A stretch of 63,528 bases of DNA, counting the filler, from Vannella sp. (Eukaryota): assembly GCA_023345925.1 (NCBI GenBank). It is 7 parts of 7 records of this genome, joined end to end, with 100 filler letters (N's around TTAATTAATTAA, not from the genome) between each part and the next. Parts side by side here need not be neighbours in the genome. Positions count along the whole stretch, not along the records: positions 1 to 7,841 come from JAJQQN010000104.1; 6 more parts are not named here. The stretch is one strand, 5' to 3'. This document shows, one piece after another, positions 1,529 to 40,302 of this stretch. The position numbers were made by a program, and so were the translations under genes. Each line of letters starts with the position of its first letter. Position 1 is the stretch's first letter. The notes beneath the pieces were generated by a model. The model saw only the letters and a program-made list of their open reading frames with translations, had not been told where the DNA came from and made no database searches.

Positions 1529-4500
1529 ATGCTTTGGCACGTGTTCTTGCTTGCCTTTGTGGCTGGAGTGTTCGCCATTCCTCCGGAGCAGAGGGACTCT
1601 CTCGCTGCTCTTTATGGTTCTACGAATGGGAACTTCTGGTTCACTAAGTGGAACATCTCTTCTGATCCATGCACTGATGGCTGGTTTGGAGTGCTTTGCG
1701 ATGCCTCTAAGAACGTCACCGACATCTCTCTGAGCGGCAACAACTTGACTGGTATTCTTCCGGACTTGCGACTTCCAGCGCTGACCAACTTGTAAGTTCC
1801 TCCCTTCCTTCCTTGAACATGATGATTGCTGACCACATTGGCAGGGTTTTGTCAAGTAATTTGATCTCTGGCGATATTCCTGAATGGCCCTATCTGTCCC
1901 AGCTGAAGAAGCTGTAAGTACATGGCCAACTAGACATTTGTGTCCTCTAACGGTTGAGAAGATCCTTGGATGGCAACCTTCTGAACGGAAGTCTTCCGGA
2001 ATGGAACAATATGGCCAATCTTCAAAGTCTGTGAGTTGTGAGAGCTTTAGTTAGTGGCTTCCGCTTATGCACGCTAGTAATCTGTTCAACAACCGTATCA
2101 ATGGAACTCTCCCTCAGTGGTTCAACCTGAGCAAACTCCAGACACTGCAAGTGCCCTGTGTTCTAGATCCCCCAATACACCGACTAACGACGCTATGGAT
2201 AGGTCTCTCAACAACAATAAGATCTACGGGGCTCTTCCCGAATGGCCATCAATGACTCGCTTAACGTCAATGTAAGTGTTTGGTGTCTATTCAAAACCAA
2301 TACTAAGATGATTAAAGGTTCCTGATCTCAAACGCTCTCTCCGGAACTCTGCCCCAATGGAACAACCTCAACAGTGCTCGTGACATGTACGTTATCCCGT
2401 GTGGCAAAAGTGGGCACTCACACCGCCTATAGTTATCTCAACGATAACAAATTGATCGGTGGAATGCCGGATTGGCTTGGTCTATGGTCCCTTCAGATCT
2501 TGTACTTCTGTCTCTGGAGAAATTCCACGTGGTTGCTAATTTGATGAATAGGTACCTGAGTTCAAACTCTCTTAATGGGACTTGTTCAAACTTCAGCAAC
2601 AGTACCCGCCTTGTACATATGTAATCAACTACTACCTCTTGTTTCGTGATACTTATCCCGGTTCCTCAGATCCTGTTCAAGAAATCAGCTCTCAGGAACT
2701 CTTCCCGAATTTTCCAACTCGGTTCGGCTTAATACCATGTAAGTGTTGTGGATGATTCCATTTGCAAACTCACAGTACCCTGATAGAGATCTTGCGCTGA
2801 ACCAGTTGACCGGTAGCGTTCCAGAATGGTCTCATTTGAGAGAAATGAGAGATATGTAAGGATTCAAGATCGACAAAGTATGTATGTTTTAACAATGAAT
2901 TTCAGATACTTGTATGCCAACAAGCTCACTGGGACTCTTCCCCAATGGTTCAATATGTCCAAATTATCCACTCTGTAAGACTATCTCATTTAACGTGCCA
3001 GCATCACAGCTAACAGTTGAACAACAAGTTTGTTGTACAGCAACGGAATCAATGGCACTTTACCTGAATGGTCCTCTCTGATTAATCTGTTTGACATGTG
3101 AGCAGCTTAGAAATGGCCATAACATTCTAATGTCTGCAGGACTTTGGGTAACAATGCAATCACTGGTACCCTCCCTAAATGGCTAAATCTCACAATGCTG
3201 AACAAGCTGTAAGACACTTGCATGCCTCCTGCTTGTCGCTGACTATTTTAAGAAACTTGTTCGGGAATCTGATCACTGGAAACTTACCTGAGTGGCCCAC
3301 TATGGAGAAACTGACTTCTTTGTAAGGAAGAAACATACGCTGCTCTCAGTTCATCAGCAAAAATGGATTTCTAACTGAATGATAGAGACATCAGTAGGAA
3401 TAACTTGATCGGTACTCTTCCCCAATGGCTTAAGCTGTCGAAGTTGACAACTTTGTATGTTCACTCTTGATAGCTTCTCATCTTACCCTTCTTCATGTAG
3501 ATTGTTGCCTGCAAATCAAATTACTGGAACTCTTCCAGACTGGTCCAATTTAACCATGTTGGGCACTCTGTAAGTTAATACCTAATTGTCCAACTCGTTG
3601 ATTCTGAAACGGTGAACGCAAGAGACTTGGTTAACAACAACATTAATGGAACTTTGCCTGAATGGTCCCAATTAGGTCAATTAACGTCTATGTGAGCCGC
3701 CATTTTCGTTGGTTTTATTGTGCTTACCCCATACAGGAGACTGAATTTGAACAAAATCTCCGGAAGTATCCCTGCATGGGAATCTTTGACAAAGTTAAAA
3801 GTCATGTAAGTTATCAATCCCTTGTTCTTTCCATGGCTAATTGGAGAAAGTGTTTTGAGTTCGAATATCTTAACAGGCACTATTCCTGAGTTTACACTGC
3901 AAAGCAAACTGATCGATTTGTAAGTAGTTCACGGTAGACCCGGTCTCACCAAGGCATGAGTGATTCGTTCTCCTTCTGATTGAGATTGAACAGAACATTG
4001 AGCAGTAACAGACTGAATGGGACACTACCCGCTTTGCTCAATTTAAGTTCACTAACAACACTGTAAGAACTCCATTTATGAAGACTCCAAGTTGGTTAAC
4101 GGTAATCCAGTTCTGTCGCAAACAACTTCCTTTCTGGAACCATTCCACCTTGGAAAGACTTGAAATCCCTTGGAAACGCTCTCTTAGGTGGAACTAACCG
4201 ATTTTGTGGATCATTACCTCCATTTCAAGGTCCGGGGCTATGTGATGTGACAAATCAGACTTTTATTTGCCCCATCCCGCCGAAATACAAGAATGCCAAT
4301 GGTTGCAATAACTCCACAGGTAGTTGTACTTTAGTGACTGGTACAAGCACTCGAACACCTTCTGGGAGTCCGAGTATCACAACTTCTCCTTCCCGCAGTG
4401 GAACCCCTTCTTCCACTCCGACTTGCTCGGGAACTGGTTCTGTGACAAACTCGCCTTCCTTGATTGTCTCTGAGACAAACTCGCCTTCCTTGAGTGCATC

Positions 4501-7500
4501 TTCTACGGAGACATCTTCAACGACCGTCTCTCGTACTGAAACACCTTCCTCATCCGCTACTTCCACAATGACTCCGAGTGTATCTGTAAGCGCATCGTCC
4601 ACCACCTCTACGAGTAAATCTGTGAGTGGATCAGCCACAGAAACCTCTTCTCCGAGTGTTTCTGTTAGTCCGTCGTCCACAGGAACAATCTCTCCTACAG
4701 AATCTGGTAGCGAGTCAGCCACAAGAACACCCTCCTCGAGTAAATCTGGAAGTGCATCAGCCACAGAAACCTCCTCCTCGAGTGAAACTGTGAGCACGTC
4801 GACTACAAGAACTCCAACTGCGAGTGAATCTGTGAGCGCGTCAGCCACGAGGACAACCTCCTTGAGTGTATCTGTGAGCGCGTCAGCCACGAGAACAACA
4901 TCCTTGAGTGTATCTGTGAGCGCGTCAGCCATGAGAACAACATCCTTGAGTGTATCTGTGAGCGCGTCAGCCACGAGGACAACATCCTTGAGTGTATCTG
5001 TGAGCACGTCAGCCACGAAAACAACCTACTCGAGTAAATCTGCGAGCGCGTCACCCACAAGAACGCCATCCTCGAGTGTTTCTGTGAGCTTGTCACCCAC
5101 AAGAACCCCATCCTCGGGTGTTTCTGTGAGCGCATCGCCTACAAGAACCTCCTCTTTGAGTACATCTCCAAACCAAACGAAAACAAGTTCTGTTAGTGGA
5201 TTTGAAACAAGAACCTCTTCCTTGAGCGGATCCTCCACGCAAACCCTATCTAGGAGCATTTCGCAAATTGAGTCGCTTTCAAGGAGTGTGTCAACCTCAA
5301 CCTCGCCTTCAAAGAGTATTAATAGGGCATTGCCTGCAACCATGAGTCTATCCCCGTTAGTTACCCGTACGGCGACTGTTTCCACCTCGGTCACACCTTC
5401 TGTTTCAACAAGCCGAAGCATGCTCAAGAGCGGTTCGGTTTCCGAAAGCGTCTCTAGATCACTGAGTGTCAGGAGCGGATTCAACTCTTCGTTCTCAACC
5501 AGCACCACAACTTCTCCCACCAGGTCGTCAGGGGGTTCCCGCTCTCCATCTCCCACAAAGACGACATTCTCTTCTCGAAGAGTGAATGCGTTGGGCGGGC
5601 CTTCAGACATTATCAATCCTGGCGTTGGAGAGTTCTATGCTGACTATAAAGGAGGCTCGATCCCCTGCACCCGCCAAAACGACACTCAAGGGAGCACCAG
5701 ACTTCACTTTCAATGCGACCGTGCTGCTCTCCAGCCGAACATTGTTGAAGTTCAAGTGGATGATTGTTTCCTCGATGTCTACCTTGCAACCAGCTTGGCA
5801 TGTCCCTCAACGTGCCAGTTTGTGGAAAAAGGATATCTGTATGACTTTGAACCGTTGAGGCTCCCTGCAAGGGGAAAGTACACTTACAGTGCAGCTGGAT
5901 GGAACTATGAGTTCAACCTTTGTGGGCCAGCCAGTCTCACAACGTGTGGTCCCAACGTTGCAGTCTGCAAGTCTAACTCCCTACAGAAGATCGTCATCGG
6001 TCGGACCCTTTTGGAAGTCTCCCGCCAAGTCCCTGGACAGTACGTTGTGCAGTACTCTGATGGAGCTTCTTGCCAGGGAGGATTCAGCAGAACCGAGATA
6101 CTTATCGGGTGTGATGAATCAGCGGCTTCTCTTGTGGTCACAGGCGTGACTCAAATGGATGCTTGCCGTACCCAAATCCGCGCTCGCTCCAGGAAGGCTT
6201 GCCAGTCTAACGCGTTGGTGTACAAGTCTCTCGTTCGAAGAGATCTGGCAGCGTTGGAACCCACATTTACAGAGGTTGGTAAGCCTGAAATCCTTCCTGA
6301 GCAGGGAATGTATCAAGTACACATGGTGGTCAGCGGCCTACGAGGATTTCGTTCTACTGACTTCCTGACGATTGAGATTTCTGGTGAGGACTTGGTTCTG
6401 ACGTCTCTTGGATTCAACGAGTCTCGGCCAATTCCATCAGACTTTGCGAAAAACTTCACAGAAAGTTCTGGTCCTGTCCCTAAGCTGATTATCACAGTTG
6501 ATGCGACGGTGCTTGAGTCTGAAGAGTACGTTTTTCTAGAGTTTAGTGGGAGTGGCTCGCCTAGGATTATTTCTTTTGTGGCGTCAAGTATCCTACATAC
6601 ACTCTCTACTGAGATTCAGGTGAATACGTTGTCTTCGGAAGTTCTCTTCTCCTCTGGAATCCAGACCTTCACTCCCCGTCTCTTGTATCTTTGTGATTCC
6701 TCTGCCGGAGATCCTGATGTGTTCTTCTCCTTCATGGGGGATCAATTTGACAGTGCAATCAACGAGGGATCTTCTGAGGCAGGAATTGTTACGATTCCCG
6801 GTTGGGACTTTGGTGCCGTCATTCAAATGGACATCACCGCGGCTGGACTGGATACAGTGGACAACTGTTCATGTGCTGTGCACCCTCTTCTGTACGCTGT
6901 GGGTCCATTGGAAGCTCGGTCTGACCTGAAAGACATCTTTTACCAGTTATCGATCAATGGCGATATTGACCAGTTAAAGCTGACTACTGAGCCTGGATCA
7001 ACGCTAGAGCTATTTTTCATTCAGTCTCCGGACGAGTTAGCGTCGGAATCTCCTTTGGCCTCTGGCACAACAATCCTACTGGAGATGAGCTCGGTCAATC
7101 GAACGGATCTTTCTATTGTGAGAGCGCGGGGTCCATCAAGAGACTTCAATATTACTGCCATGACTAGACTATCTCGAGATTCTGGAAGGTCCAACACAGT
7201 CCGCTTTAATGAGGAATTAGAAAGCCAGGATCTGCGCTATCTCTGGCACTACGATCTTTCCATCAACTTTGAAGCAAATTCTTCTCTCACAATCATCATT
7301 CTAACGAGCCTCATCGAAGACATAAGCATTCAACTCACGAATGGTTTGCAGTTCGCTTGCATCAATGAAACGAACGCGGATGGGAGCTGCGAAATAGTGA
7401 TTCACTCCTCATCTTTGAGAGGTTTATCGTTCATTGAATTCGCCGTTCAAATCGCACAGCCACAGCCCAACAGTGTCTACAACTTAATGGTTATGGTCAG

Positions 7501-7841
7501 TGAAGTCACTCCAGTCAGGGACAACGTTGTCAATGGAATTGCAGACGGGAAAGGGCTCATCAAATATGTGTATCATGTGCCCGAGGACTTTATCGGGTTT
7601 GGAGTCACCATTTCTCCGGTAGTCGACGGCTCTTCTCAGTTTTTCGTTTACAACAGACGTTCGGAGGAAAACTTTGGCACCAGTGACAATGTTACCTCGT
7701 TCGCTCTTGGAGCAAATGCAGGTGATGTGTTTGAGATTGAGGTGGAAAACTACGACGCCGGGAGCCTCTTCTCCTTCCAATTGGGCTTCATGGAGTATCC
7801 GCCAATCCTCCGCATCACCAGTCCAACGGATGATATCTCCC
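1529..7841 (+). CDS. LRR gene A: signal peptide, LRRNT cap, ~21 LRRs (19 internal 69-nt exons), Cys cap, Ser/Thr mucin stalk, MRH (M6P-receptor homology) domains and an unassigned beta-rich region; 3'-truncated by contig end
   Basis: Exon 1 1529-1791 (MLWHVFLLAF..WNISSDPCTDGWFGVLC..LSGNNLTGILP). 69-nt exons start at 1845, 1962, 2078, 2203, 2318, 2433, 2552, 2670, 2787, 2906, 3029, 3140, 3253, 3386, 3501, 3623, 3737, 3851, 3994. Last exon runs from 4111 in frame with ORF 4160-7897. All introns GT-AG except one GC-AG. MRH motifs YDFEPL..YEFNLCG..C..VAVC..YSDGASC..C..ACR..SRKAC. Confidence 0.9.
4820..5160 (+). repeat. 42-bp coding minisatellite (14-aa unit SVSVSASATRTTSL) in the stalk of LRR gene A
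   Basis: Repeated unit gagtgtatctgtgagcgcgtcagccacgagaacaacatcctt; about 4-5 near-identical copies, with more degenerate flanking copies back to ~4570. Confidence 0.9.
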
Positions 7842-7941: not shown

Positions 7942-8903
7942 GTCGTCTCCTTGAATGGTGATACAATCCCGCAGGCTTCTTCCTCTCTCAGTTCCACTTC
8001 ATCTTCCCCCGTGAGCGAGACAATGACAGTAGCCGCCAACTCTCCTTCAAGTTCCAGCGTTAACACTCTTAGTGGGTCGACAACACCCTCCCCCTCACTA
8101 CTCCTCTACCAGAAGCCAGCAAATCGCCAAGTCTTTCCAGCCCAAATTCTTCGGGAGAGCCCAATCTACAAAGTGACTCGCCGTCAATCATTCTGTTTGC
8201 CACGCCCGCTTTATCCATCACTCCTTCCGTTCTCTCTGTGGTCGTCTATCCCTCGAATCTTACTAACAGATTGGTGGAGCTATCTGTCAATCCTGGAGAG
8301 GGAGTGGTGGGAGCCCTCTTTGTCCCTACTTCGTTGAGCAATCAGGCAAACACCACTTTAATAACTTCCTACTCCAGTGGTGCCATAAGCGACCCCTTAG
8401 GTCAAGAGTTGGCCAGTGCTATCTTGAATATCACCCTTTCAGACGGCCAAGGCAAACCCATCCTCCAATTGGACTCGCCATTAACTATCTGTTTGGCCTC
8501 TCCCAACACCACCAAGAAAGGAAAGACGATTTGCCTGGGCTTTTATGACGAGCCAAAAGGCAAATGGAGATGTGAAGATGAGTGTCTCACTACTATTGCA
8601 ACCGACAAAGGAACCAACGCTTCCAGTGTTGGAGAGAACGGCAACCTTTTGTGCGGTCAAACTGGCCATCTCACTGACTTTGCCCTTCTCTTGACGGGGA
8701 AGGAAAATGGAGGAGACCCATGCCAATCGAATAGCCAGGACAATACCTTGGCTTGGCTTTCCCTAGGAATGGTAGCGGGAGCTCTCCTAGTAGTAGCTCT
8801 TTGTGCATTAGTGATTGAAACACACTTCCGATGGAGAGTGCACCGCAAAGCTGCATTGATCAGTAAGCATTCCCAATCCCAGTCCCAGAAAACTCACTCT
8901 TAG
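7942..8903 (+). CDS. 3' fragment of another stalk-GPS(GAIN)-single-TM receptor (paralog of LRR genes B/C)
   Basis: Ser-rich stalk, then QLDSPLTICL..CLGFYDEPKGKWRCEDECL..LLCGQTGHLTDFALLL, TM (LAWLSLGMVAGALLVVALCALVI) and short basic tail, all aligning with ORF 36172-37791. A frame change near 8070-8110 could be a 41-nt GT-AG intron (8072-8112) or a frameshift. Confidence 0.8.
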
Positions 8904-10570: not shown

Positions 10571-11506
10571 CCCCACCTCCCTCCCAACAGAAAATGACCA
10601 AAATGCAAATCCTTCAGAATTCTTGCTAATTTATGAATGATTCGTAAGATTCCAATTCGCCATTTCTTTATGGGCTTCAAAGTGGTGAAATGGACACCCT
10701 CTGGTACGCAAGAAGGGGGTGAGCAGATGGATCAACTGAGCATATCAGTCGATAGAGTGGATTCGTATTAGTAGTTAGAGGAGATGGCACCCTGAGTCGT
10801 CTCTCTGACACCAAGATATGAGCTCGGCTGTTTAGGCGTGACAGTTTGCTCGAAAGCTATGGATCTACTGAATGACAAGTGCTAAACGAAAGCAAGGTTG
10901 ATCACTAAGTTGTTGGACTACCCCTCAACCAAACCGTTCCTCTTGATATCCTTTGGTGCACATGCCTGTTCAGCGATCGCTCGTCTTTTCGAGCGAATCT
11001 TCTTGAATCATGCATCTCAATGTCATTGGGATGGTGTAATCTTTACATGAAGCGTGTGCGAGTCTGGTAGAAACTCATGGGGGCTAGCAGAACAGGAGCG
11101 CAAACATCCTGAGGAGTCGCTCGATTGGCACAACCAGGACCTTCCCTGTCTGCCTGCCTCCTAAGCTCTAACAAGTCCTTTTACATGAGCTCTAACACCG
11201 TTGCAAAACGCATACCGTTGCAACATCAAACCAGCAGGGAAAGAGGGTTCGTTCCCTCCATTGACTATGAAACAGACCGAAAGCGGAGCAGAATAATGGA
11301 GCCTTCCGAGAACGAAAGACTGGAGCAACTTGCTCTTGAAGCCTTCAGAAAAAGGGAAAAGTCATGCTCAGAGTGGAAGAAGTTGTCCCAATTCTGGACT
11401 TCTGGAAAGAAGAAAAGGAAATAATCGCGCTCAAAGTGGAACAGTTTCTCCCAATTATAGAGCTTCTTCAGACTTTCTTGGCAGTGCTGTTCTTTCACTT
11501 TTTCTG

Positions 11507-14500
11507 ATGCGTGTCTTGTTGGTGGCCTTGCTACTGTCTGCTCTTCTGCCATTCGTGCTATCTGACTTGTCCACGGATGAGCCTCGTTCCTTTGACCATC
11601 TTTTGGAGAGGATGAGGGTGAGACATCCTAGCTTGCGAGACATGAACCCTCTGGATCATTTCCAACATGTTCTTGGTGACATACATGTGCTGATGCAAGC
11701 TGGCATGACCTACCGTAGTAAGATCGCTGATCTGGACCACTTTGGATCTCCGCGTTACCATGACTCGACCTTGCGCCCGCGTTACCACATCTTCAACTCT
11801 GACTGGGACGACTCTATCCAAGACGTTTACATCTCTGGAAGGGACATTGTCGTCCGGACAAGTCGTCCAGAATCCATGATACGTTTGAAGGCCCAGAAAG
11901 GAATGATCTTCAGCACTGCCATGGACTTCTCTCAAGAAGGCGACGAGGAGCATCAAGGATCCCGTGATTTTCTACTTACTCAGCATCCAATACTGATTGA
12001 GGACAATCTGGTTCTGCTCGAAAACGTTGTTGAGATGGAGTTTGCAAATCTGTGGGAAATGGCTTCCATTTCAACTGACGTGCAACAATATCAGTACACT
12101 AGGAAGGATGGGGTGTCTACCAGTCGGGCTCTTCCGGTTGCTTTCACTGTCTTCCGTCCGGATGAAGAGAGTAACTCTGTATCACATAAGAGAGGATTTT
12201 TCGATGATGTCTGGGATTCAGTGAAGAGCGCAGCCTCCTTCGTTGCAGACAAAGCCCTCAAACCCATTTATAACGCAGCAGCTAATGTTGCCATTTCGAT
12301 TGTAACTGTCGTCCAAGTTGTTCACGCTATCAGTGGAGGTGAAACTAGTTCTGATTTCAGCTTCAACTATAACAAAGCTACTGGAGAGGCATATATCGGC
12401 ATACCCCTGTTCCCTCCAAATCTTAACAAGGATCTAGGATTGAAAAAGGACGTGAGCCCGGAACCGACCCCCAAAAATGGAGCTCCGAAAGCTAAAGGTG
12501 AATTTCAGGCCACCTTCAGACTAAGTTGCAGAGATTGTTGGGGCAAAGCACAATTTCGCGCGACCACCAAGTACGAAGTCGCTCCAAACGGGAAAAATGT
12601 GTTCAACACGAGGATTTCCGGAGATATTGACCTTAAGCTTGTCTTGGAGGCTATCATTGAGGCAAAGTTTACCGCTTCAATCAACCTTCCCATCTATGCT
12701 ATCTATCCTGGATCGACTGTACAATCAAGCTCCGTGTCTGGAAAGTCGTTCCAGATTAAGTTCGAAGCTGGTCTCTTTCTCAAGGCTGAATCTGTTGTTG
12801 ACGTGAAAGGGCTGATCACTCAGACAAACACTTACAAACTCGTCGGATTCATTGAATTCTTCGTAAGTGATCGCAAACTCAATTTTGATTCAGGTTTGGT
12901 TATTAAGGAGAAGACTTCCAAGACAGAGATAGATGCTGAAATCAAATGGACTCTCGGGAGCACTTTTGGTGTCAATATTGATGCTGCTATGTTCGGCTTC
13001 AAGATTGAGTCGTTCATGGGCATCTTTTTTGAGTGGGAACTTGGGATAGATACCAAGTGCAAGCGGCTAATCAACGGTACTTCTGCTCTTTTCGGAGCGA
13101 GAGCCACTATTGAAGCTTATCTGCCACCCACTTTCGCTTCCTTGGCTGGAAAGAGCAAGTTTGAAAAGGCCACCGAAAAGTTAAACTATCCAATTGAAGC
13201 CATGGAAGGTTGCTTCCTGGATCCTAGTCCAAAGGGTCTGAGAAACGAAGAGCTGACTTTTGACTGCACCGCAACCTTTAACGGACAGAAAGCCGATTTT
13301 TCTTCCTTGAGAAGATCGAAGATTGACCCTTACAGGTTCGAGTCTCGTGGGTTTGATTATGTGTTCAATATCTGTGAGTCTGTCACTCGTTCCCTCTGTC
13401 CAGGAGACGTAGGCATTTGTCAGGAATCAGGCGCCTCTGGCTCACGGATTGGAAGACCTTCATCCCAGGTTAAGGCCGAAAGTGCAGACCGGTTTGTTAT
13501 CACCCACAAGAGTGGAGACATGTGCGGACTGCAACCACGCGAAGGTCGAATCATTCTGACTTGTGATTTTGATGCTACTTCCCCGGTAATCACCAGAATT
13601 GAAGAACCAAGCTCTTGCAAGTATGAAATTTACATCCGAACTTCACTCGCATGTCCGGCTCCTTGTCAGGTTAATGTGGGCAACACCCTTTTCGATTTCC
13701 GCCCTCTTTCTTTGAAAAACGGGTCGTACAAGTTCCAAGATGGAGATAATGTATACTCTATGAATATCTGCGGATTTGTGACGGATTCCAGATGCCCTCC
13801 ACGGACGGCAGGAGCTTGCAAGAGTATCTCAGCAGCAAATTTCTCCAATTACTTCAGTCTTGGTGCTCCTTCGAAACTCATTCAAGTAGAAGGAGATAAG
13901 TTCTACTTAGAATACAATGACGGATTCGGAGAAGGTTGTGAAGGAATCAGATCCTCCAAGATTATCATCTCGTGCAACAAGGATGTGCCAACAGGTCGAA
14001 TCATTGCAGTGCGGGAGCCATTTGCTTGTCGCTTTGAAATCTACTTTGAAACTGCATTGGCTTGTCCAGCTGCTTGCCAAGCCATCAAGGATTACGCTCT
14101 ATTTGACTTATCCTCCTTGAGGCGACCTGGAGATGGACCGTTCTCCTTCTCTTCCCGGAGAAACAATTACTTGTTCAATATCTGTGATGGAATATCTGGA
14201 TCACGGTGTGGGAACGCTACCGTGGGAGTCTGTCAATCCTCCTTATACTCGGCAAATAGTTTGGGTCAAGTGGACTATTCGCCATCTGCTGAAGCCGACG
14301 GGTCATTCCGCTTTGATTTGAAAGGAGGAAACGATAGCAAATGTCCAGGACCCCGAGAAACCACCTTGATTGTGAAGTGCAATACTAATGCTGTTGATTT
14401 GGTCGTCAGTTCTATTTCAGAAACAACTCAGTGTCGCTTTTCGCTCATTGTTGAGTCGATTAACGCATGTTCTTCCAGAGCAATGGTAACCCGGCGAGAT

Positions 14501-15431
14501 TTGAGTGCAGGATCTTTGCAAGTGCTTCAAGTTAGTGTCTGGGAGGCGTACTCCATGGGAGATGTCCAGATTGCTTTTGATCTCACACCTCTCGGGGGAT
14601 CTTCCGGGCTGGAAATCCTACAAATACTGATCATAGGAGCTGACATGAAAGTGGATTACATTGGTGTAGATCAGAATATTCTTGAATTGATTAGCCGGGG
14701 GTTAACCCAATACTCTGACGACTTGCTGACTTTGAATCTTCCAACATACATTCTTAGCAAAGGAGATTATCTTTTCCTGAATTTCTCTTCTTCCGTTAAT
14801 GGCCAAATCTTTTCGTCCTTGTCCCAGGTGGGAGAGAATTCCATGGAATTCGGCTTCCGAGTTCCTTTGATTGGGGCAGGAATCCTCTACTCCCTGCCAG
14901 TCTTCACTCCAACAGATCAGTTCTACTGCTATTGCGAAGCTGATTCAGGCTACCCCCAAGTGTTTATAACTAATTTTGACGACGAAGTCTTGCACACTAA
15001 CTCCGTCAACTCTTCCTTATACCTAGCTGGAAGAGTAACAATGCCAAGTGACAAGTTAGACACAATTTTCTTCTCTGTTTTTGCGGCCGGTGATACTCCT
15101 ATCGAAGTAGTATCTTGTTCTTTGTTAGCGTTGGTACCCGCTCCAGGGAATGTTCCAGCCATCCTTGGGGTATCAAGTGTAGTTTATGAACTCTCAATCA
15201 ACGCAAATGTTGATGAATTGATTCTCACTAGTGGAGAAGAATCTGAGATTTACCTCTCGTTTATGCAAAGGTTGGAGGATCTCTTCCTGAATCCTCCGGT
15301 GGCATTTGGAGTTGGAAGTCTTTCATACAATCTCCAAAACCTGCCTCGAGCTGATTTGTGCTTCGCTCGTGTCTTCGGCAAATCTTTCGACTTCGGTGTG
15401 GAAGCTATTCTTTACCTGACTGATTCTGCAC
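11507..15431 (+). CDS. Large secreted/surface protein: signal peptide, pro-region, KR site + amphipathic helix, beta-rich domain, three MRH domains, and a C-terminal region homologous to LRR gene A; 3'-truncated
   Basis: Signal peptide MRVLLVALLLSALLPFVLS at ATG 11507. Three repeats of D[FL]SxL..Y.[FM]NIC..C...G.C...G..C...R...I...C......E...C.[FY].I...TxLAC. No intron needed. Confidence 0.85.
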
Positions 15432-25079: not shown

Positions 25080-27758
25080 TTAGTGCATGGGAGGAGAACG
25101 ACCAGTGATACTTTGATGATCCTTTCCAGGGTTGTTCATCATATCCACTCCCCCGAAGAGGCCAACGATAGTGTGGCGCAAAGAGCGCTTTTCCGCCTGG
25201 GTGGTTCTTAGCCCGGCTGGTTTAGGTTCAGAAGCACCGCCTTGTCTTGCGACAAGGACTGCCGCAACAACGACTGCCGCAACCACAATTCCAGCCAATC
25301 CGAGAAGAACAATGCCTCCACCGACTGTGCCTATTACGATACCTGCGATAGATCCTCCACTCAATCCGCCGGCTCCTCCTCCGGCCGATCCTGCCCCTGC
25401 AATGGCGGCTTCTCCAATACTGGAAGCTCCGGTGACCTCTGGTCGAATCAAAACAGATGCAGGGAGTCCAGCTTGCAACGCTCCTTGGCTTCCTGTAACG
25501 ACTCCAGTTGAAGATATTCCCAGAGCCGCTCCCTCTGGACCAGCAGCGGCACTGGAAAACGCCTCGACAATCGCCTGGGCTGGAACTCCAGTTGATTGAA
25601 CCACGAACGAGAATCCGCTGACCAGACTTTTTGTATGGGCAGCGCCCTTGCAGTAGGCATTCTGTCTAGAAGGGCGGACTTGGATGTTTGTTGTGGAAGG
25701 ATCTGACTTGGTCAAGGAGAAGAACATAGCCAGCCAATCATCATCATTGATGCAAACACTTAGAGTTACTGTCAGAGTTGCTGAGGTGCTCAATTTTAGA
25801 TTAGAGATGGTTGGCCGTGGTTCGCTTTGGGAAGAAACCCAAAATGACATAGTTCCCAGCTTTGGGAAGTAACTTCCAATAGTGTTCGCAGTGTACTCGT
25901 TTGTTGCACCATTAGAATCAAACTTAAGGCTGAGAAGGATTTTTCCGTTGCTGTCGTCCCATCCCATTGAGAATGTGACTTCCAAACCGTTTGCTGAAGG
26001 AAACGGGATAGTTCCCAGGGGAGTATCACAAACGCTGATCCCATTCAGAATCACACAGAATTCAAGGGATGCAACCATTCCGTCAAGATTGCTGAGGACC
26101 CATTGCAATCGATCGGTGGAACGTTTAGAGCCTGCTTGCCCAGTTCGGGAAGCAAAAGCTACACTCCCAGATGATGCCTTGATCATAAACGTCTCAGAAG
26201 TTGTGTACTTGTCCACAACATCCCCAGACTTGTCCCAATTGATGAGAAAGTCTCCGTTCTGGTTCGTGGAGAGAAACTGTCCTTCAACGCTCAAGCCAAC
26301 AGGAGAAACAGGCGAAAGTTGAGTAAAATCCAGCGCGTAGTCAGGAACTCCAGTTGCGGCCTTATCGGTAATACACTCGCCGCTAGCAGTGTCTTTAGTA
26401 CCCAGTGGGCAAGAGCACAAGTTCGAGGAGCAAACCTTTCCGCTAGAGCAGGTGCCACAACTGTACAATATCCCACAGACCAGGGCGTTTCCACAGTCGA
26501 AACCCGTTGAGGCACACTGTTGCTGCTCGTCACACGGTTCAGAAAACTCTGCTGATGTAGCCGAACTGGTACCGGAGATGGGAGAAATGGATGGGGCCTC
26601 AGTTGGGCTCGTGGTGGGAGGGTTGATTTTACCCGCTGGAAGGTTTGAAGGGGCAATTGAGCACCGAGATTGAGCGTCGCACACTTGATCCGCTCCACAA
26701 GTGCCGCATACTCCTCCGCATCCATCAGGTCCGCAACTCTTTCCGTAGCAATCATAAGTGGCACATGAAGTAGCCAAGCCTCGGCTTGTTGTTAGAGTGA
26801 ATCTTGGGCTTTTGGAATTCAGTAAGTACCCGCGCATTCGAGCTACTTGGTTCTTTGTAAAGTATTGCATACAAGAGTCATAGTTGTACTCCATCACATT
26901 GCGAAGCATCACCGTATTTCCACATCGGACGAATCCGGTTGTGCTGTCTTGAATGTTGCAGGGATTTGAGGTAGAAATCCAATTGTAGGCAAGTTCGTCT
27001 GTCTTGGGGGTGTCAGCAATCCCATCTCCAACACCGGCACACGAATCTCCCTCGAAAGTGTGGTGAAGTCCCAACCAATGACCAGTCTCATGTGCCAAGA
27101 TATTTCCCGCAATCTCGGGATCTCCTAAGTAGGTGTAGTCCAGTACACAGCCATCTTCAGCAAATGGGATAGTAGAAGGCATGTAAGCTAATCCTGCGGA
27201 TCCGTCGTTGATCCGGCAAGTGTAAATGTTAAAATACTTGCTCGAATCCCAGATGTTATCTCCTCCTCGGGCCGTGAAGAATGGGGTGTCACTATCGCAA
27301 GATTCTGCAACTTTGCTTGTGACATAACGCACTCCGTCAAAGGGTTTCCCGAGTGGGTCTTTTGCTGCCAACTCGAATCTGATGTTGAAATCTCCGGCCA
27401 CGGCCACAACAGAGGAGAACATGTCGGAGGTATTGTGATGCAGGTTTCTACCAGAAAACCAATCATTCAACCAACCCATCTCTTTAAGGATGGTTTCCCT
27501 GCTAACTCGGTTGGCTGCACTATCAGTTAGGACGTGCCACACTACTGGTATCCGCAGCACTGTAGTTGCTCTCTCAAATAGGTTTCCGTTGTTAGTTACT
27601 TCCTCAGCCAGGCGTTCGATGGCTTCTGAATGCTCCAGAAACCAGGTGGATTGTTTTAGACGATCCGTACCACACTTGGAAGGAGGTCGAAGCCCTGCTG
27701 CATGCGCAAGTGATGTTGTCACCAAAAGAGAAAGTAAAAGAACAATCAATGAACGCAT
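25080..27758 (-). CDS. Membrane-anchored M43 (pappalysin/ulilysin-like) zinc metalloprotease 1
   Basis: Signal peptide from ATG 27758, prodomain KCG, IPVVWHV, HETGHWLGLHHTF (HExxHxxGxxH), DGIADTP, Met-turn NVMEY, Cys-rich CGPDGCGGVCG modules, C-terminal Gly-rich TM and tail. Intronless. Confidence 0.92.
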   Translation of the reverse strand: MRSLIVLLLSLLVTTSLAHAAGLRPPSKCGTDRLKQSTWFLEHSEAIERLAEEVTNNGNLFERATTVLRIPVVWHVLTDSAANRVSRETILKEMGWLNDWFSGRNLHHNTSDMFSSVVAVAGDFNIRFELAAKDPLGKPFDGVRYVTSKVAESCDSDTPFFTARGGDNIWDSSKYFNIYTCRINDGSAGLAYMPSTIPFAEDGCVLDYTYLGDPEIAGNILAHETGHWLGLHHTFEGDSCAGVGDGIADTPKTDELAYNWISTSNPCNIQDSTTGFVRCGNTVMLRNVMEYNYDSCMQYFTKNQVARMRGYLLNSKSPRFTLTTSRGLATSCATYDCYGKSCGPDGCGGVCGTCGADQVCDAQSRCSIAPSNLPAGKINPPTTSPTEAPSISPISGTSSATSAEFSEPCDEQQQCASTGFDCGNALVCGILYSCGTCSSGKVCSSNLCSCPLGTKDTASGECITDKAATGVPDYALDFTQLSPVSPVGLSVEGQFLSTNQNGDFLINWDKSGDVVDKYTTSETFMIKASSGSVAFASRTGQAGSKRSTDRLQWVLSNLDGMVASLEFCVILNGISVCDTPLGTIPFPSANGLEVTFSMGWDDSNGKILLSLKFDSNGATNEYTANTIGSYFPKLGTMSFWVSSQSEPRPTISNLKLSTSATLTVTLSVCINDDDWLAMFFSLTKSDPSTTNIQVRPSRQNAYCKGAAHTKSLVSGFSFVVQSTGVPAQAIVEAFSSAAAGPEGAALGISSTGVVTGSQGALQAGLPASVLIRPEVTGASSIGEAAIAGAGSAGGGAGGLSGGSIAGIVIGTVGGGIVLLGLAGIVVAAVVVAAVLVARQGGASEPKPAGLRTTQAEKRSLRHTIVGLFGGVDMMNNPGKDHQSITGRSPPMH

Positions 27759-27965
27759 CGACTGCCAAGAAAGAATTGAACAGACATAAGCTATCGATTG
27801 GAGTGTTTCCCCAATCACGGACCGTTCAAGGAATGCTCCGTGAAGTCACGTGACGGAAAGTTCTTTTTTTGGTCCGGAACGCCACGGACTATTCCTTGAA
27901 TGGTCCGTGGCGTTGGAACTACCTCTTTTTGTTTCTCCTTCTCGCACAACTTTTCTTTCCTCAAG
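27759..27965. promoter_or_regulatory. 207-bp bidirectional promoter of the M43 pair
   Basis: Divergent ATGs. Dyads CGGA-N3-TTC-N3-GAA-N3-TCCG at 27818-27840 and 27885-27907, degenerate copy at 27854-27876, and palindromic E-box GTCACGTGAC at 27845-27854. Confidence 0.75.
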
Positions 27966-31503: not shown

Positions 31504-34500
31504 TCACTCGTTGCAATCGAATGTTGGTGTTCGGAAACAGAGACTGACTTTAGAGATAGTCTTTATTTCCTTCCAGAGTTCGTTCGATGAACTGATTGAA
31601 TCGATAATGCTTCGGCTAGTCTGACAAAGGTTTTGATCTTCTTCCTCCTTGCCCAACAAGAGAAGAGCAAAGCTTGTGAGATGATCCGTTTCACCGCACA
31701 GCAGATTCTGCCAATCGGCATGATCTGCACCTTTGGAGTTGATGGTGGTGAGGCACTTGTCTTCGCACTTCCATTTGTCGCTGCTTGGGTCATAGAAACT
31801 CAGGCATACCTTCTCGTTTTTCTTGGTGTCGTTGGAAAGGGCCAAGCAGATGGTCAACGGAGAGAGCAGTTGGGAGATGGATTTGCCCACTTCCTGGAGA
31901 GTGATATTCACGACAACGCTTCTCAGTACTTGGTTGTTATAAGATCCACGCGATCCATTCCACCCAGAGTACGTTGTGGTCAAAGTTGCGTTTTTCAGTT
32001 TCTCCCAGTCCTCAGGAATCACAAGGCCTCCAAGAAGTTCCTCAGCAGGAAACCCTGGTAGGTCCACTAATCGATCAGAAGAAGAGTCCACTACTTGCAA
32101 AGAGAGCGTGAATCTGTCAATGGAGTGCAGTATGGCTGCACTAGCAGATACAGTTTCTGCTAGACTCTCGGAATTGGCCACCCTGAGAGATTGCCGAGTC
32201 GGTAACTCTGCCAACGGGGTATCTTTGACCATACTCATCTCATTGGAAGATGTCAACGTTCTAGTGTCACTGGGAGATATCCCAGGATGGATAAGAGATT
32301 CTCTGACCTCAGTTGTACTGCTCAAGTACGAAGGAGATTCCGAAGCCTTTGAGGAATTAAAAATCGATGGGCTTGAAGCCTGAACCCCGGAGCTTGTTGG
32401 ACTAAGGCTCACGCTTAGAGTTGCACCAGGAGATCGAGACTGAGTTTCGGTCGAGTTGATTCGAGGTAGGGAAGGGAGAGAGGACATTGAAGAGCTTGTG
32501 AGTGTACCTGTATCCCCAGAGTTCATGGAAGCGATAGAAAAAGAATGACTTGGGGTAGAGGTTGTGATGATAGGGGAACTTGTGTAGGAGTTTGTTTCCC
32601 TAGAGGATAGGGTGTGGCTGAAAGAAGAGGAAGAGCTAGGAGTGATAGAAGCAGAATAACTAGAGGAAGCTGATGCAGCTCTGGAGTCAGTAAGAGAAGG
32701 TGTAGGGGAACGTGTCAGGGAGTTGGTTTCCCTAGTGCTGACACTGAGAGTAGCAGAAGAGGAATAGCTAGGAGTGACAGAAGCAGAATAACTGGGGGAA
32801 GTTGCAGGGGCTCTGGAGTCCGTAAGAGAAGGAGTTGGGGAACGTGTCGGGGAGCTGCTGACACTCAAAGTAGCAGAAGAAGAATAGCTGGTAGAGAGTG
32901 TGGAAGTTATGGTGGCGCTGGGAGACGGGGAACCATATCCGCAAACGCCTGAGGTTGAATTACAGATGGCGTTGGAATCGGTGAAACCAGGAGGAAGAAA
33001 AGAGCAGTTAAATGTCTGATTGGAGAGATCAACGAACGAGTAATTGTGAGAAAGCTCTGGTAAATCTCCACAAAGGCGGTTTCCCCCAAGGAAGAGAGTT
33101 ATTAAGGATGTAAAGTGATCCCATTTTGGAACGGTCCCTGTGATGGAGTTGTTCCGCGCGAATCTGGGAACAGTAAATCAGTTTCTTCTCCGATGTATAA
33201 GACAGAGATCTCTTCGATACTCACAAGTATCTCAAACTCGTCAAATTTGTCCAGTTTGGAAGAGTTCCGGAAATGTTGTTGTCGTCAATGATCCTGGATC
33301 CGTTTGTAAGTACGACTAAGGAGAGTGATGAAGAAACTCCGACATTTGCTCCAAACTCTCTAAGTTACGCCATTCTGGAAATGTTCCTGAGATAGAATTT
33401 GTCTCCAATCTCCTACAGAGAGTACTTGAGGAAAGTTACCAACTCAAAAAGATCCGAGTTACTCACATGTAGTATAAATGTCTATGCTTGGACCACTCAG
33501 GCAGGGAACCATTGATTTGATTGTTGTTCAATTTCCTGTTATAGATGAGATCTTCAATGCAGTAGTACCGTTTCAGGTATTCTTACATCTCGACGAGGTC
33601 GGGGCTGCCTTCCCATTCTGGAAGAGTTCCCTCAATTTGATTGTTTTCCAAATTTCTGAGGACTCTCGTCAGAAGGAAGGTTTCTTCTTGAGGGTACTGA
33701 CAGGTATCCAAGGAGAGTAAGATTAGACCAATCAGGAAGAGATCCGGTGATTCTGTTGTTGCCCAAGTCCCTGCAATAATTAATTAGTCTAAAGGATTGC
33801 TTTCTGCTTGCACTCACATTTCGAACAGATTTTTCTTGTTTGTCCATTGTGGAAGAGGGCCCTCAATCTGATTGTCATTCGAATATCTGCATTTGGGTGC
33901 TTAATGTCAAACATAAACTGTTGCTCCAAACTCACATTGTGTTGAGCTCGGACATGTTGAACCACTCCGGAATAGTTCCTGTAATATTGTTGCTTTGAGT
34001 TGATCTGAACAGATTTGTTACTCATCAGGGCATGCATTCACGGATAGGAAGTACTGACAATGATATCAGACGACTGAGATTGTCCCATTGAGGCAAAGAT
34101 CCAGAAATCTGATTTTGCCCCAAATCCCTAGCACAGATTACTTCTTCCTCTTCTTCAGACTCGGCTAGCTCAACTTACAGGTATGTTAGATTGTGAAGCG
34201 AAGGCCATTCAGGAATGCTCCCAGTGATGCGGTTGTTTGCCAAGCTCCTTCAATGAAAATGAGTAAAAGGATTATCAGAAGAATCTTCCTACAGAGAGAC
34301 GAGCGAAGAGAGTTTCAGATCAACAAGAGTTCCAGATAAGTTGTTAGAAGCCAAATAAAGGGCATACACACTGTTATTGCGACATACTACTCCAAACCAG
34401 GTTGAACAGGGCTCAGAGGTATCATTCCACTGGCCTACAGAGTTGCTCCAGAAAGCTCCACCTGTTGCGTTAAAAAACTCCAACAGCGAATTGATTTGTT

Positions 34501-34567
34501 CGTTGGGAAGAGCGCCATTCATGATTGCTACCATCGTCACGAAAAGGAGAGTCCTGGACAACCTCAT
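31504..34567 (-). CDS. LRR gene B: signal peptide, LRRNT, nine 69-nt LRR exons, Cys cap, Ser/Thr stalk, GPS motif; TM deleted (predicted secreted, or pseudogene)
   Basis: Exon 1 34293-34567. 69-nt exons 34179-34247, 34059-34127, 33936-34004, 33818-33886, 33702-33770, 33587-33655, 33467-33535, 33344-33412, 33225-33293. Last exon 31504-33163 is in frame with ORF 31504-32868 and contains LCGETDHLTSFALLL. Confidence 0.88.
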
Positions 34568-34771: not shown

Positions 34772-37700
34772 ATGCGGTGGCAGTCTCTTCTCACGTTATC
34801 CTTTGTTTACGTATCAGTTTGCCTTCTACCTCTTGAAGAGACCAACTCTTTGCTGTCTCTTTACAACAGCACCGGTGGGGCTTTCTGGAGTAACTCTGTC
34901 CAAAAGTGGAACTCAAGCACCGATCCTTGTGGGGCATCCTGGTATGGAGTAAAGTGTGATGTTGCCAATAGCAGTGTTACTTCTCTCCAATTGCCCAACA
35001 ACAATTTGACTGGATCTCTTCCTGATTTGCAACTTCCAGGGCTCATTAAGTTGTAAGAATCTTCACCTCCCAAAACGTAATTGTTGAGAACCTTTAGGTA
35101 CTTGCACGACAACAAGATTTCTGGCCCTTTACCAGAATGGTCCAATCTCAGCAGTCTAAGTATTATGTAAGGAGAAGTCTTCACCAAAGATTGGCCTATG
35201 TATTGATTGACCTTCAGGCACTTGCATAACAACAAACTGTCTGGAACTCTCCCAGAATGGCCAACTCTGAGAAATCTAACCCAAATGTTTGTAGTTTCCT
35301 TCCTCCCAAGAAGGTTGAAGTTTTATTGATTGGATTGATCTGGATGACAGGTACCTATTTCGCAACATGATCACTGGTCCTCTTCCTCAATGGCTTTACT
35401 TGGATGCTCTCGACGAAATGTAAGCTGTCCCCTTTCCCAAAGTAGTAACTGAAAAACCGTAGGTTCTTGAGTGGCAATCAGATTAATGGAACTCTTCCAG
35501 AATGGAGCAACCTGGCCAATTTATACGAAATGTGAGTTCTTTCTTTGAAGGAAATCGGAGATATACTTACAAGTTCTCACAGGGACTTGGACTCCTGTGG
35601 GATCATTGGTACTCTCCCAGAGTGGACCAATCTAACGAACTTGAGATACATGTGAGTCATTAGAGATGGGAATGACAATGTTTGACTAGAATGACAGGAA
35701 ATTGAGGTTCAATCAAATTACAGGATCGCTCCCAAGATGGAACGGTTTGAATCTTTCTATTGACTTGTGAGGCAAATTGAGGTAAAACCACAATGACATG
35801 AAACTCATTCATCGGAACAGGAGATTAGAAGGCAACCACATCAATGGTTCACTTCCAGACTGGCCCAATCTTACGCGACTGAGTCTGTTGTAAGTTCCAT
35901 TTCTCTCCTCGAATTCTTATTTTTCAATGAGCTCAATCATGCAACAGGAATTTGAGATCAAACAACATCACTGGTACCCTTCCAGAGTGGGGGGCTCTGG
36001 AGAAAATGAGTCAATTGTGAGACGTTTCGTAAACTGTGAGTCAAACATGCTCACCAGACAACTACAGAATCTTGAGCAAAAACTCTCTCTCTGGCACTCT
36101 TCCTGATTGGTCAAATATGACAAAGTTGGCGTTCTTGTAAGTTACTCTCCCATACAGAATGCGGAAGTCCTTTGATGGTAGCCCACTCACCTCATTGTAG
36201 ATTTATTCAAGACAATTCGATCACTGGTACGCTGCCAAGGTGGCCAACTCTCAAGTCCCTGTTAATTGCTGAGGTTGGGGGAACTAACAATCTTTGCGGA
36301 GAATTGCCGGACCCTCGACCTCGCAATTACTCGGTGGATCTTTCAAATCAGATTTTTAACTGTTCTGTTCTTCCTCCTGGCTACATTTCCACTTTTGGTA
36401 CCTGCAATGCCACTTCTGGTGTCTGTGGATTTGGGTCGCCCTCCTCCAGCCCAAGTGGAACAATCACTCCCTCTCCCAGTGTTTCATCGTCCGGAAGTCT
36501 CTCGTCTAGCATTAGTTCGAGTCACACAAGTTCATCATCTCCTTCGCCAACTGAAAGTCTCTCATCCAGCATAAGTTCGAGTGGAACAAGTTCATTGTCT
36601 CCTTCGCCAACTGAAAGTCTCTCATCCAGCATTAGTTCGACTGGAACAAGTTCATCATCTCCTTCGCCAACTGGAAGTCTCTCATCCAGCATAAGTTCGA
36701 GTGGAACAAGTTCATTGTCTCCTTCGTCAACTGAAAGTCTCTCATCCAGCATAAGTTCGACTGGAACAAGTTCATCGTCTCCTTCGTCAACTGAAAGTCT
36801 CTCATCCAGCATTAGTTCGAGTGGAACAAGTTCATCGTCTCCTTCGTCAACTGAAAGTCTCTCATCCAGCATTAGTTCGACTGGAACAAGTGATTTTTCA
36901 TCATCCCTCTCAATTGGAAGTTTCTCATTAACAATGACAGCGAGTCAATTTCCATTATCTTCAATCACCAGAATCCAATCTGCAGGTAGTGGCCCTGAGT
37001 CTATTCAGATAAGCGAATCTGTTTCCCGAGGAATTGACAGCACCAATCTTGAAACCTCAGTTGTGCCAGCCAGTGTTTCCGTTTCTGCAGGTGGTACTCC
37101 CTTTGAGCCTCCCTTTCCAGGTAGACTTAATGTTTCCTGGGAGGTTTCGCATCTGTCTTCTCAGGAAATGGTCCTTCTGTCTGGCCATCCTGGAGTGGGA
37201 CTTCTTGGTTGTCTTGTTGTACCCTCTGACTGGGCGAAACCGGAGAACGCAATATTGACTACTTTCTACTCTGGCTGGAGCAAACCAAGAGAGTCTTACA
37301 ATCACCAAACGCTGGTCAGTGCGGTGATGAATATCACTCTTGGAAGGGATGGCAAAGACAAATCCATCTCCCAATTGCTCTCTCCGTTGACCATCTGCTT
37401 GGCCCTTTCCAACGACACCAAGAAAAACGAGAAGGTATGCCTGAGTTACTATGACCCAAGCAGCGACAAATGGAAGTGTGAAGACAAGTGCCTCACCACC
37501 GTCAACTCCAAAGGTGCAGATCATGTAGATTGGCAGAATCTGCTGTGCGGTGAAACGGATCATCTCACCAGCTTTGCTCTTCTCTTGTTGGGCAAGGAGG
37601 AAGAAGATCAAGATCTTTGTCAGACTAGCCGAAGTGATACCCTTGCGTGGATATCAATGGGAATGGTTGCGGGCGCGATTCTGGCTGTTGCTCTTGGGGT

Positions 37701-37791
37701 GATGGTCATTGAAGCGCACATCCGCTGGAAGCATTATCGATTCAATCAGTTCATCGAACGGACTCTGGCAGGACATAAAGACTATCTTTAA
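34772..37791 (+). CDS. LRR gene C: signal peptide, LRRNT, nine 69-nt LRR exons, Cys cap, Ser/Thr stalk, GPS (GAIN) motif, single TM, short cytosolic tail
   Basis: Exon 1 34772-35052. 69-nt exons start at 35098, 35218, 35351, 35463, 35583, 35698, 35821, 35948, 36068. Last exon 36201-37791 encodes CLSYYDP..KWKCEDKCL..LCGETDHLTSFALLL and TM LAWISMGMVAGAILAVALGVMVI. Confidence 0.92.
36493..36891 (+). repeat. 60-bp coding minisatellite (20-aa unit ESLSSSISSSGTSSSSPSPT), about 6.5 copies
   Basis: Consecutive 60-nt lines 36541-36900 are nearly identical. Confidence 0.97.
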
Positions 37792-40115: not shown

Positions 40116-40163
40116 CCAAAAGCAAACGCTCTGCGCACTTCCGAGGAAAAGTGGCTTTGGTAC

Positions 40164-40183
40164 CCCTAAACCCTAAACCCTAA
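40164..40183. repeat. Interstitial telomere-type repeat (CCCTAAA)x~3
   Basis: ccctaaaccctaaaccctaa lies between two divergent ATGs. Confidence 0.85.
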
Positions 40184-40302
40184 GGAGAGTAATCCCGTGC
40201 AAAACACAAACCTCATCAACTCCAAACTTGATGTGGTCAAAATAATAATTGAAGGAGTTGGGAAGGACAAAATGGAGCCAGTTTCTTTCGCATTGCTGTC
40301 TC

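Follow-up and report, generated by a model that had tools for sequence, protein, structure and literature searches.

Apparently old arrays of 69-nt one-repeat exons in three likely extracellular LRR genes of Vannella sp.

Introduction

Plant LRR receptor kinases such as ERECTA and SERK are encoded with one LRR per exon, and the germline gene of the lamprey VLRs is incomplete and accompanied by a flanking cassette library, assembly proceeding cell by cell through gene conversion. According to excerpts of two accounts, these VLRs are assembled somatically (PMC10199209, PMC6642158). Among protists, the group II LRR genes of Tetrahymena consist of 90-bp one-LRR exons in tandem, separated by phase 2 introns; in the available portion of the source, they are devoid of nucleotide-level repeat units and taken as the older class, and the young recombining arrays of group III are characterized by near-identical exons across genes and by nucleotide-level exon/intron repeat units (PMC6564038). 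For brown-algal ROCO genes of type I, passages of one article give one plant-type LRR per 72-bp phase 2 exon and report LRR exon skipping in Ectocarpus (PMC11378527), and a partial text of another describes orphan and inverted exons as well as reshuffled paralogs in the Ectocarpus ROCO genes (PMC3341825). Human LRR exons (NLRs, Slit) are, in the accessible part of their description, enriched in frame-preserving lengths of 69-87 bp, their border taking a constant position in the beta-sheet, and LRR exon skipping is reported there for NLRP3 (PMC6642158).

Here, we describe three LRR genes of Vannella sp. (GCA_023345925.1) in comparison to these systems. Their arrays are probably old products of exon duplication with splicing in fixed order, and the genes would belong to a multigene family of extracellular binders diversifying by duplication, substitution, and tail exchange.

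Results

Gene models and exon layout

The window, i.e., the whole stretch of 63,528 nucleotides that was analyzed, consists of seven contigs joined by N spacers, and gene A is consequently without linkage to genes B and C. The locus is also present in three biofilm DNA runs of one study (X1-X3), which may include the source sample, and in one freshwater run of another study (X4). A six-frame motif scan together with a splice-site scan placed LRR exons at three sites only within the 63-kb window (genes A, B, and C; Table 1). Since 37,964 of 63,000 bases are located in stop-free frames of at least 300 aa, the arrays are conspicuous in their surroundings. Introns elsewhere in the genome are exemplified by NMD3, on another contig of the window, which is interrupted by short inserts. 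The NMD3 protein shares 68-78% identity with its closest relatives, one of them clustered with an MMETSP transcript, and ~55-57% with named fungi and Rhizamoeba; a tree of 24 rows, selected from at least 120 hits and one cluster member, placed its clade next to that of Rhizamoeba, though weakly (support 82/85). Genes B and C are oriented head-to-head with 204 nt between their start codons. The same contig hosts a second head-to-head duplicated pair, 25080-27845 (-) and 27900-30683 (+), of intronless M43 (pappalysin-type) metallopeptidases being 60% identical and each carrying a C-terminal hydrophobic helix.

A preliminary description of this DNA had proposed internal exons of exactly 69 nt, flanked by phase 2 introns throughout, combinable in any way with Leu/Ile/Met/Phe and never a stop at the junctions, and followed by downstream parts without introns. 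The rebuilt gene models reproduced its coordinates for all three arrays and bore out each of these points. All 37 internal exons (19 in gene A, nine each in B and C) measure exactly 69 nt, and the flanking introns are of phase 2 in 40 of 40 cases, with lengths of 42-74 nt (median 50, n=40) and 39 GT-AG borders besides a single GC-AG. The intron site is constant in all 40 and falls within the concave beta-strand, where it splits the second conserved residue of LxxL|xLxxN. On the donor side, only the dinucleotides AT (18), TT (12), and CT (10) occur; consequently, every possible junction codon encodes Leu, Ile, Met, or Phe and never a stop, the actual ones being L, I, or M. The spliced open frames comprise at least 1768 aa (A, leaving the contig end), 852 aa (B), and 831 aa (C), and the retention of any single intron leads to a premature stop (40/40). 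In each gene, the last exon forms one uninterrupted open frame (3730 nt in A, visible part; 1660 nt in B; 1591 nt in C). A pattern combining splice sites and LRR matched 20 of the 37 window exons and found 0 matches in 100 shuffles. Judged from the sequence, on which the gene models are built, the exon layout is as described.

Table 1. Positions of the features of genes A, B, and C and of the fourth tail along the window.
Feature	Position	Strand	Description
Gene A exon 1	1529..1791	+	N-terminal hydrophobic stretch, likely a signal peptide; LRRNT_2 cap (Pfam E=4e-05, exceeding the cut-off); first LRR
Gene A array	1845..4062	+	19 x 69-nt exons; starts 1845, 1962, 2078, 2203, 2318, 2433, 2552, 2670, 2787, 2906, 3029, 3140, 3253, 3386, 3501, 3623, 3737, 3851, 3994
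GC-AG intron	2147-2202	+	In array A
Gene A last visible exon	4111..7840	+	Final LRRs, Cys cap, long Ser/Thr stalk, CIMR/MRH-type domains (CIMR E=2.1e-06); leaves contig, anchor not in visible part
Fourth tail	8073..8903	+	GAIN-B-like domain and membrane helix as in C (48% identity); 5' part off contig, thus known from tail only
Gene B last exon	31504..33163	-	Final LRRs, cap, Ser/Thr stalk, GAIN-B-like domain; without membrane helix
Deletion junction in gene B	31610..31613	-	97 bp absent relative to gene C, 4-nt microhomology
Gene B array	33225..34247	-	9 x 69-nt exons; 5' ends 34247, 34127, 34004, 33886, 33770, 33655, 33535, 33412, 33293
Gene B exon 1	34293..34567	-	Likely signal peptide, LRRNT_2 (E=1.2e-05), first LRR
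Gene C exon 1	34772..35052	+	Likely signal peptide, LRRNT_2 (E=1.9e-07), first LRR
Gene C array	35098..36136	+	9 x 69-nt exons; starts 35098, 35218, 35351, 35463, 35583, 35698, 35821, 35948, 36068
Gene C last exon	36201..37791	+	Final LRRs, cap, Ser/Thr repeat stalk, GAIN-B-like domain, one membrane helix (aa ~781-808), ~23-aa tail
GAIN subdomain B / ZU5-fold beta-sandwich	37120..37620	+	Compact, GPS-type H-L/T-S-F motif; predicted

LRR ectodomains

The encoded proteins share one order of elements, namely a hydrophobic N-terminus (by inspection a likely signal peptide), an LRRNT_2 cap, repeats of 23 residues, a Cys cap, and a Ser/Thr stalk. The repeats are of the plant type with Trp in the convex segment. 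They host 31 N-glycan sequons in 37 repeats, 24 of them at the convex positions 8 and 16. The notion of a fixed scaffold with concave positions varying from exon to exon was reflected in mean entropies of 0.68 bits (scaffold) and 3.32 bits (concave), the latter also being higher in a second comparison (3.32 vs 2.52 bits), and in 37 distinct x1/x3/x4/x6 residue sets in 37 exons. Tyr is enriched at concave positions (15/222 vs 3/259, p=0.001); such Tyr-rich variable positions fit a binding face, but also a beta-strand preference. Between B and C, dN/dS was 0.14 for the scaffold, 0.50 for convex positions, and 0.81 for the six concave positions (95% 0.43-1.37; one pair, near saturation). The expected excess of non-synonymous change at exposed sites is not significant by this comparison, which is a weak one owing to the near saturation.

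Genes A, B, and C likely encode glycosylated surface or secreted LRR binding proteins, as suggested by these sequence features. The proposal of extracellular LRR binding proteins was thereby sustained (fixed scaffold, variable concave positions, and signs of a larger family), and the proposal of three surface receptors stood for gene C with its membrane helix and not for B, where the helix is absent, or for A, whose C-terminus is off the contig. Atlas searches returned generic LRR clusters and, as a lead only, GPS clusters at 0.89/0.86. A homologue search with gene C exon 1 yielded 17 generic LRRNT/LRR proteins, the named ones bacterial, and was uninformative.

Tails behind the stalk

A non-LRR gene at 11297 has a tail homologous to the CIMR/MRH-type domains of gene A, from which we infer tail exchange among surface proteins. 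This gene (11297-15430, +) is intronless and codes for a secreted protein with at least three CIMR/MRH repeats, a non-LRR N-terminus, and the tail shared with gene A. The gene C protein ends ~23 aa after one hydrophobic helix and is devoid of a seven-helix domain of the adhesion GPCR type. In gene B, the 97-bp deletion eliminated the membrane helix and shifted the tail frame; among the matches listed, its junction was bridged by none of the sample contigs. Besides the fourth tail of the window, protein P0150 represents the last exon of another family member with cap, stalk, GAIN-like domain, and helix. Another surface protein of the window, a large beta-helix protein at 50046-54470 (+), apparently extends, up to where the contig stops, through a membrane helix to the beginning of a kinase domain.

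The dS between B and C drops to 0.22 in the GAIN-like part vs 1.3-1.4 in cap and array, and the contigs of X1 and X2 display a tight cluster of six differences within 24 nt (37624-37647) in the gene C tail. Going by this low dS and the clustered differences in sequence, recombination (conversion) is acting on the tails of these genes. Further along, a beta-lactamase-family (serine hydrolase) gene is present in two frames at 38659-40172 (-), with about three CCCTAAA telomere-like units beside its start (~40165-40184).

The GAIN-B-like domain of gene C

The tail domain of gene C is predicted to adopt a GAIN-B/ZU5-like fold. Based on 94 aligned relatives, its 167 aa were modeled with a pLDDT of 86.3, and the top five Foldseek hits of this model were all adhesion-GPCR GAIN domains (CELSR1, BAI2, BAI3, CD97; E 5e-05 to 6e-04). 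VIA-align against CD97, CELSR1, and BAI3 resulted in Z 10.8-10.9 and rmsd 3.2-3.4 over 132-143 aligned positions, the ankyrin ZU5 domain being nearly as close (Z 10.3). An alignment of the family profile to the GPS motif of ADGRG3 reached E=0.007. H-[LF]-T-x-F is conserved in 142 of 150 relatives, and the HL/T motif is found in both B and C. The Pfam GPS model gave no match to the domain of gene C and a weak one in 7 of 94 relatives. A first fold from 8 sequences (pLDDT 47.9) was discarded, as its structure search matched a long helix only.

The protein may cleave itself at the HL/T site, as far as this model goes. In the available part of PMC3321182, the whole GAIN domain is required for cleavage, and the helical GAIN subdomain A was not recognized upstream of the gene C domain, where a Ser/Thr-rich stalk is found and the confident model spans 167 aa only; cleavage in gene C is for this reason a prediction. 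As a combination, the GAIN-B/ZU5-like domain plus one membrane helix represents a common tail module, detected in 411 proteins at E up to 0.001 behind many different ectodomains. In P0234 and P0272, phage tail collar domains are joined to this GAIN-like plus membrane tail. In P0148, P0159, P0182, and P0190, this GAIN-B-like domain is repeated 3-6 times in tandem, with scores for ZU5 and weak ones for GPS, and the N-terminus of P0148 resembles that of a bacterial lipoprotein. These tandem-copy proteins are a possible link of the ZU5 and GAIN folds outside eukaryotes.

Age and order of the arrays

Exon pairs share on average 50% and at most 70% identity (666 pairs), and neighboring exons are no closer to each other than to the remaining ones (0.499 vs 0.493). 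The 40 introns are no more alike than shuffles (score 0.250 vs 0.237), and no periodicity in array A survived 26 lag tests (lowest p 0.011). In an exon tree of the window, 0 of 34 inner branches were well supported. Genes B and C, sharing the exon number of nine, are collinear: same-position exons are 0.581 identical vs 0.536 when permuted (p=0.0014; p=0.026 at protein level), and their intron lengths correlate position by position (r=0.86, p=0.0004; the eight internal introns r=0.81, p=0.006). The best match was found at its own C position for only two of nine B exons, and with a positional signal of this weakness some exon replacement after the duplication is possible. The offsets of A vs B and A vs C revealed no consistent collinearity (lowest p 0.03, 44 tests). 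According to the sequence comparisons, the arrays are old and their exon order appears fixed.

The other DNA samples were in line with one order. Contigs of X1-X3 bridging several exons show the same order with 0-1 differences from the window, and the four 151-nt pieces of X4 show 7 differences over 604 bases, with the local exon-intron order in gene A preserved, both among the matches listed. Thus, an order conserved between samples, named at the outset as an argument against shuffling, was observed wherever contigs bridge, in bulk DNA and among the matches listed. At 35505, 12, 6, and 11 contigs match one exon partly and then run to a donor in the same phase. This points to a larger family, to which other organisms may contribute, and suggests that the three genes seen in 63 kb are possibly one part of a larger LRR-exon family.

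Related exons of this kind in the DNA runs, the differing repeat number (19 vs 9), and the conversion in the tails (the B/C dS drop and the difference cluster) would speak for ongoing DNA-level shuffling by unequal crossing-over or conversion, as in the Ectocarpus ROCO genes and Tetrahymena group III, with A, B, and C as older members. Such shuffling is, however, unlikely: since exon identity does not exceed 70% and the introns are unrelated, little homology is left for recombination, all bridging contigs among the matches listed have one order, and the exon profile at E<0.1 recovered only the 37 exons and five terminal repeats (a sixth terminal repeat reached E=0.11), i.e., no orphan or inverted cassettes in the 63-kb window. 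The preliminary description had inferred a diversifying, VLR-like repertoire and counted an order conserved between paralogs against it; the inference is disfavored by the low exon identity, the shuffle-like introns, and the lack of orphan cassettes in the window, and such a conserved order was seen, in part, in the collinearity of B and C.

Quite unlikely in our judgment is combinatorial splicing by in-frame exon skipping, where, with the intron lying within the concave beta-strand, each skip would yield a novel hybrid strand for binding. Every skip would be frame-safe and stop-free, the arrays contain several weak donors (the GC donor, GTTTGT, GTCGGA, GTACTT), and partial texts report LRR exon skipping in Ectocarpus ROCO (PMC11378527) and human NLRP3 (PMC6642158) as well as a frame-preserving bias in skipped exons of Tetrahymena (PMC6142364). 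Against this stand the introns of 42-74 nt, as skipping is reported, in an excerpt of the latter source, to be low outside bilaterians and tied to a long-intron, exon-definition architecture (PMC6142364). Moreover, frame symmetry is no sign of use, because the duplication of one unit yields it automatically. Apparent exon-skipping joints were taken for paralog fragments, having sides of 20-27 bases with unknown letters between and being out of register where checked (35260/35840, 2130/3526). Equally unlikely is the broadest version, in which a free-living protist would possess many self-cleaving, single-pass capture receptors of the LRR type with a minimal GAIN domain, diversified in a Dscam-like manner by in-frame 69-nt skipping that joins two half beta-strands each time.

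True VLR-like somatic assembly from a cassette library would match the architecture of N-cap, variable LRRs, cap, and Ser/Thr stalk, and is nevertheless very unlikely, the genes being complete with own splice sites for each cassette, the window hosting no cassette library, and the DNA order being the same in three samples. An artefact of assembly or of chance splice-site picking, conceivable for models built from sequence alone in a window of seven joined contigs, has next to no probability in view of a length, phase, and frame common to all 37 exons, the absence of pattern matches in 100 shuffles, and the contigs of public runs reproducing the DNA.

Discussion

Old arrays with fixed-order splicing thus remain the probable explanation. 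In this scenario, the germline genes A, B, and C would be complete, and the likely source of their 37 one-repeat exons would be an exon-plus-intron unit that was duplicated in tandem in the distant past. The exons would likely be spliced in a fixed order, giving glycosylated LRR binding proteins on a Ser/Thr stalk. Diversity would be generated via gene duplication (the inverted pair B/C), rapid point substitutions at the concave positions, ancient and rare shifts in repeat number (9 vs 19), conversion between tails, and exchange of what follows the stalk (a GAIN-like domain plus helix in C, CIMR-type domains in A). Gene C is predicted to be a single-pass adhesion or capture receptor, the ectodomain of which might be shed by a cut at the HL/T site; because its tail is short, capture or adhesion is likelier than direct signaling. 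Gene B could represent a secreted form or a decaying copy. Candidate ligands are the surfaces of prey, substrate, or kin.

These data extend a known organization of LRR genes to a sparsely sampled lineage of protists and suggest that arrays can keep their order over a dS of ~1.4 while the concave face turns over. In parallel, they call for caution, as frame symmetry should not be read as shuffling. If exon skipping were true, it would provide a recognition repertoire in a unicellular eukaryote. For adhesion-receptor specialists, the side result is a GAIN-B/ZU5-like tail module behind an LRR array, and the gene C domain offers a small test case for self-cleavage by subdomain B alone.

Comparison with known systems

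The general exon-modular LRR kind, a fixed-length, frame-preserving one-LRR exon with a constant intron site, is represented here by 37 of 37 exons and 40 of 40 introns. A scan of metagenome contigs for the exon pattern resulted in nine loci, none from this gene family, and in no match among prokaryote genomes or viral contigs (0 each); as the pattern needs the Trp and matches only 20 of the 37 window exons, the scan does not count as a census. Two of the loci (L001 and L002) cover the same gene of an AT-rich, intron-rich eukaryote with at least 11 consecutive 69- or 72-nt exons and the same intron site. In this gene (L001:3452-5072, also L002), the mixed 69/72-nt one-LRR exons are followed by EGF-like modules. 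The other seven (L003-L009) have exons of 72, 69, and 75 nt, again with this intron site and phase, and resemble LRR receptor kinases of land plants, as judged from kinase motifs in L006. The plant genes resemble A, B, and C in repeat class, intron site, and phase, but possess a kinase tail, 2-3 such exons per locus, and introns of ~240-350 nt.

Human NLRs and Slit, in the described part of PMC6642158, likewise have frame-preserving LRR exons with the border fixed within the beta-sheet, whereas their repeat classes are different, their introns long, and skipping is documented. Tetrahymena group II (PMC6564038, in part) is alike in being a protist system of tandem fixed-length exons with phase 2, short introns, and no nucleotide repeat units, while its exons measure 90 nt in contrast to the 69-nt, plant-type GxLP repeats here, which are extracellular with a stalk. 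Compared with group III of the same partial account, no retrotransposon link, near-identical exons, or nucleotide-level repeat units were seen in our genes. With brown-algal ROCO genes, as far as covered by the excerpts of PMC3341825 and PMC11378527, the phase 2 LRR exon, the LRRNT_2 cap, variable concave residues, and local gene duplication are shared. However, those exons are 72 nt long and encode cytoplasmic proteins with a ROC-COR GTPase, in contrast to 69 nt and an extracellular location here; this GTPase is absent from the complete B and C and from the visible 1243-aa tail of A. The ROCO arrays are further marked by positive selection at concave sites, where the single B/C pair here gave a dN/dS of 0.81 (95% 0.43-1.37) near saturation. 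Their orphan or inverted exons and reshuffled recent paralogs have no counterpart in the 63-kb window, and their consensus exon border follows the beta-strand rather than lying inside it. The open-access literature, supplements aside, yielded neither a description of an amoebozoan family with one LRR per exon nor one of LRR-GAIN-single-helix proteins.

Lamprey VLRs share the cap-LRR-cap-stalk protein and the variable concave face; in the parts of the accounts covered here, they are assembled somatically from an incomplete gene, whereas complete spliced frames and no orphan cassette in 63 kb were found in our case. Adhesion GPCRs and the polycystin-1 type (parts of PMC3321182 and PMC12716839) are alike in the predicted subdomain-B sandwich, in the HL/T motif just before the membrane, and in the position of the GAIN-like domain behind adhesion modules and a stalk. 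They differ by at least seven helices, compared with one helix and a short tail in gene C, where subdomain A was not recognized. In summary, the one-repeat-per-exon LRR layout is already known from brown algae, Tetrahymena, and humans, and the less ordinary part is the protein design, i.e., the predicted combination in gene C of an LRR array, a Ser/Thr stalk, a compact GAIN-B-like fold with the HL/T motif, and one membrane helix.
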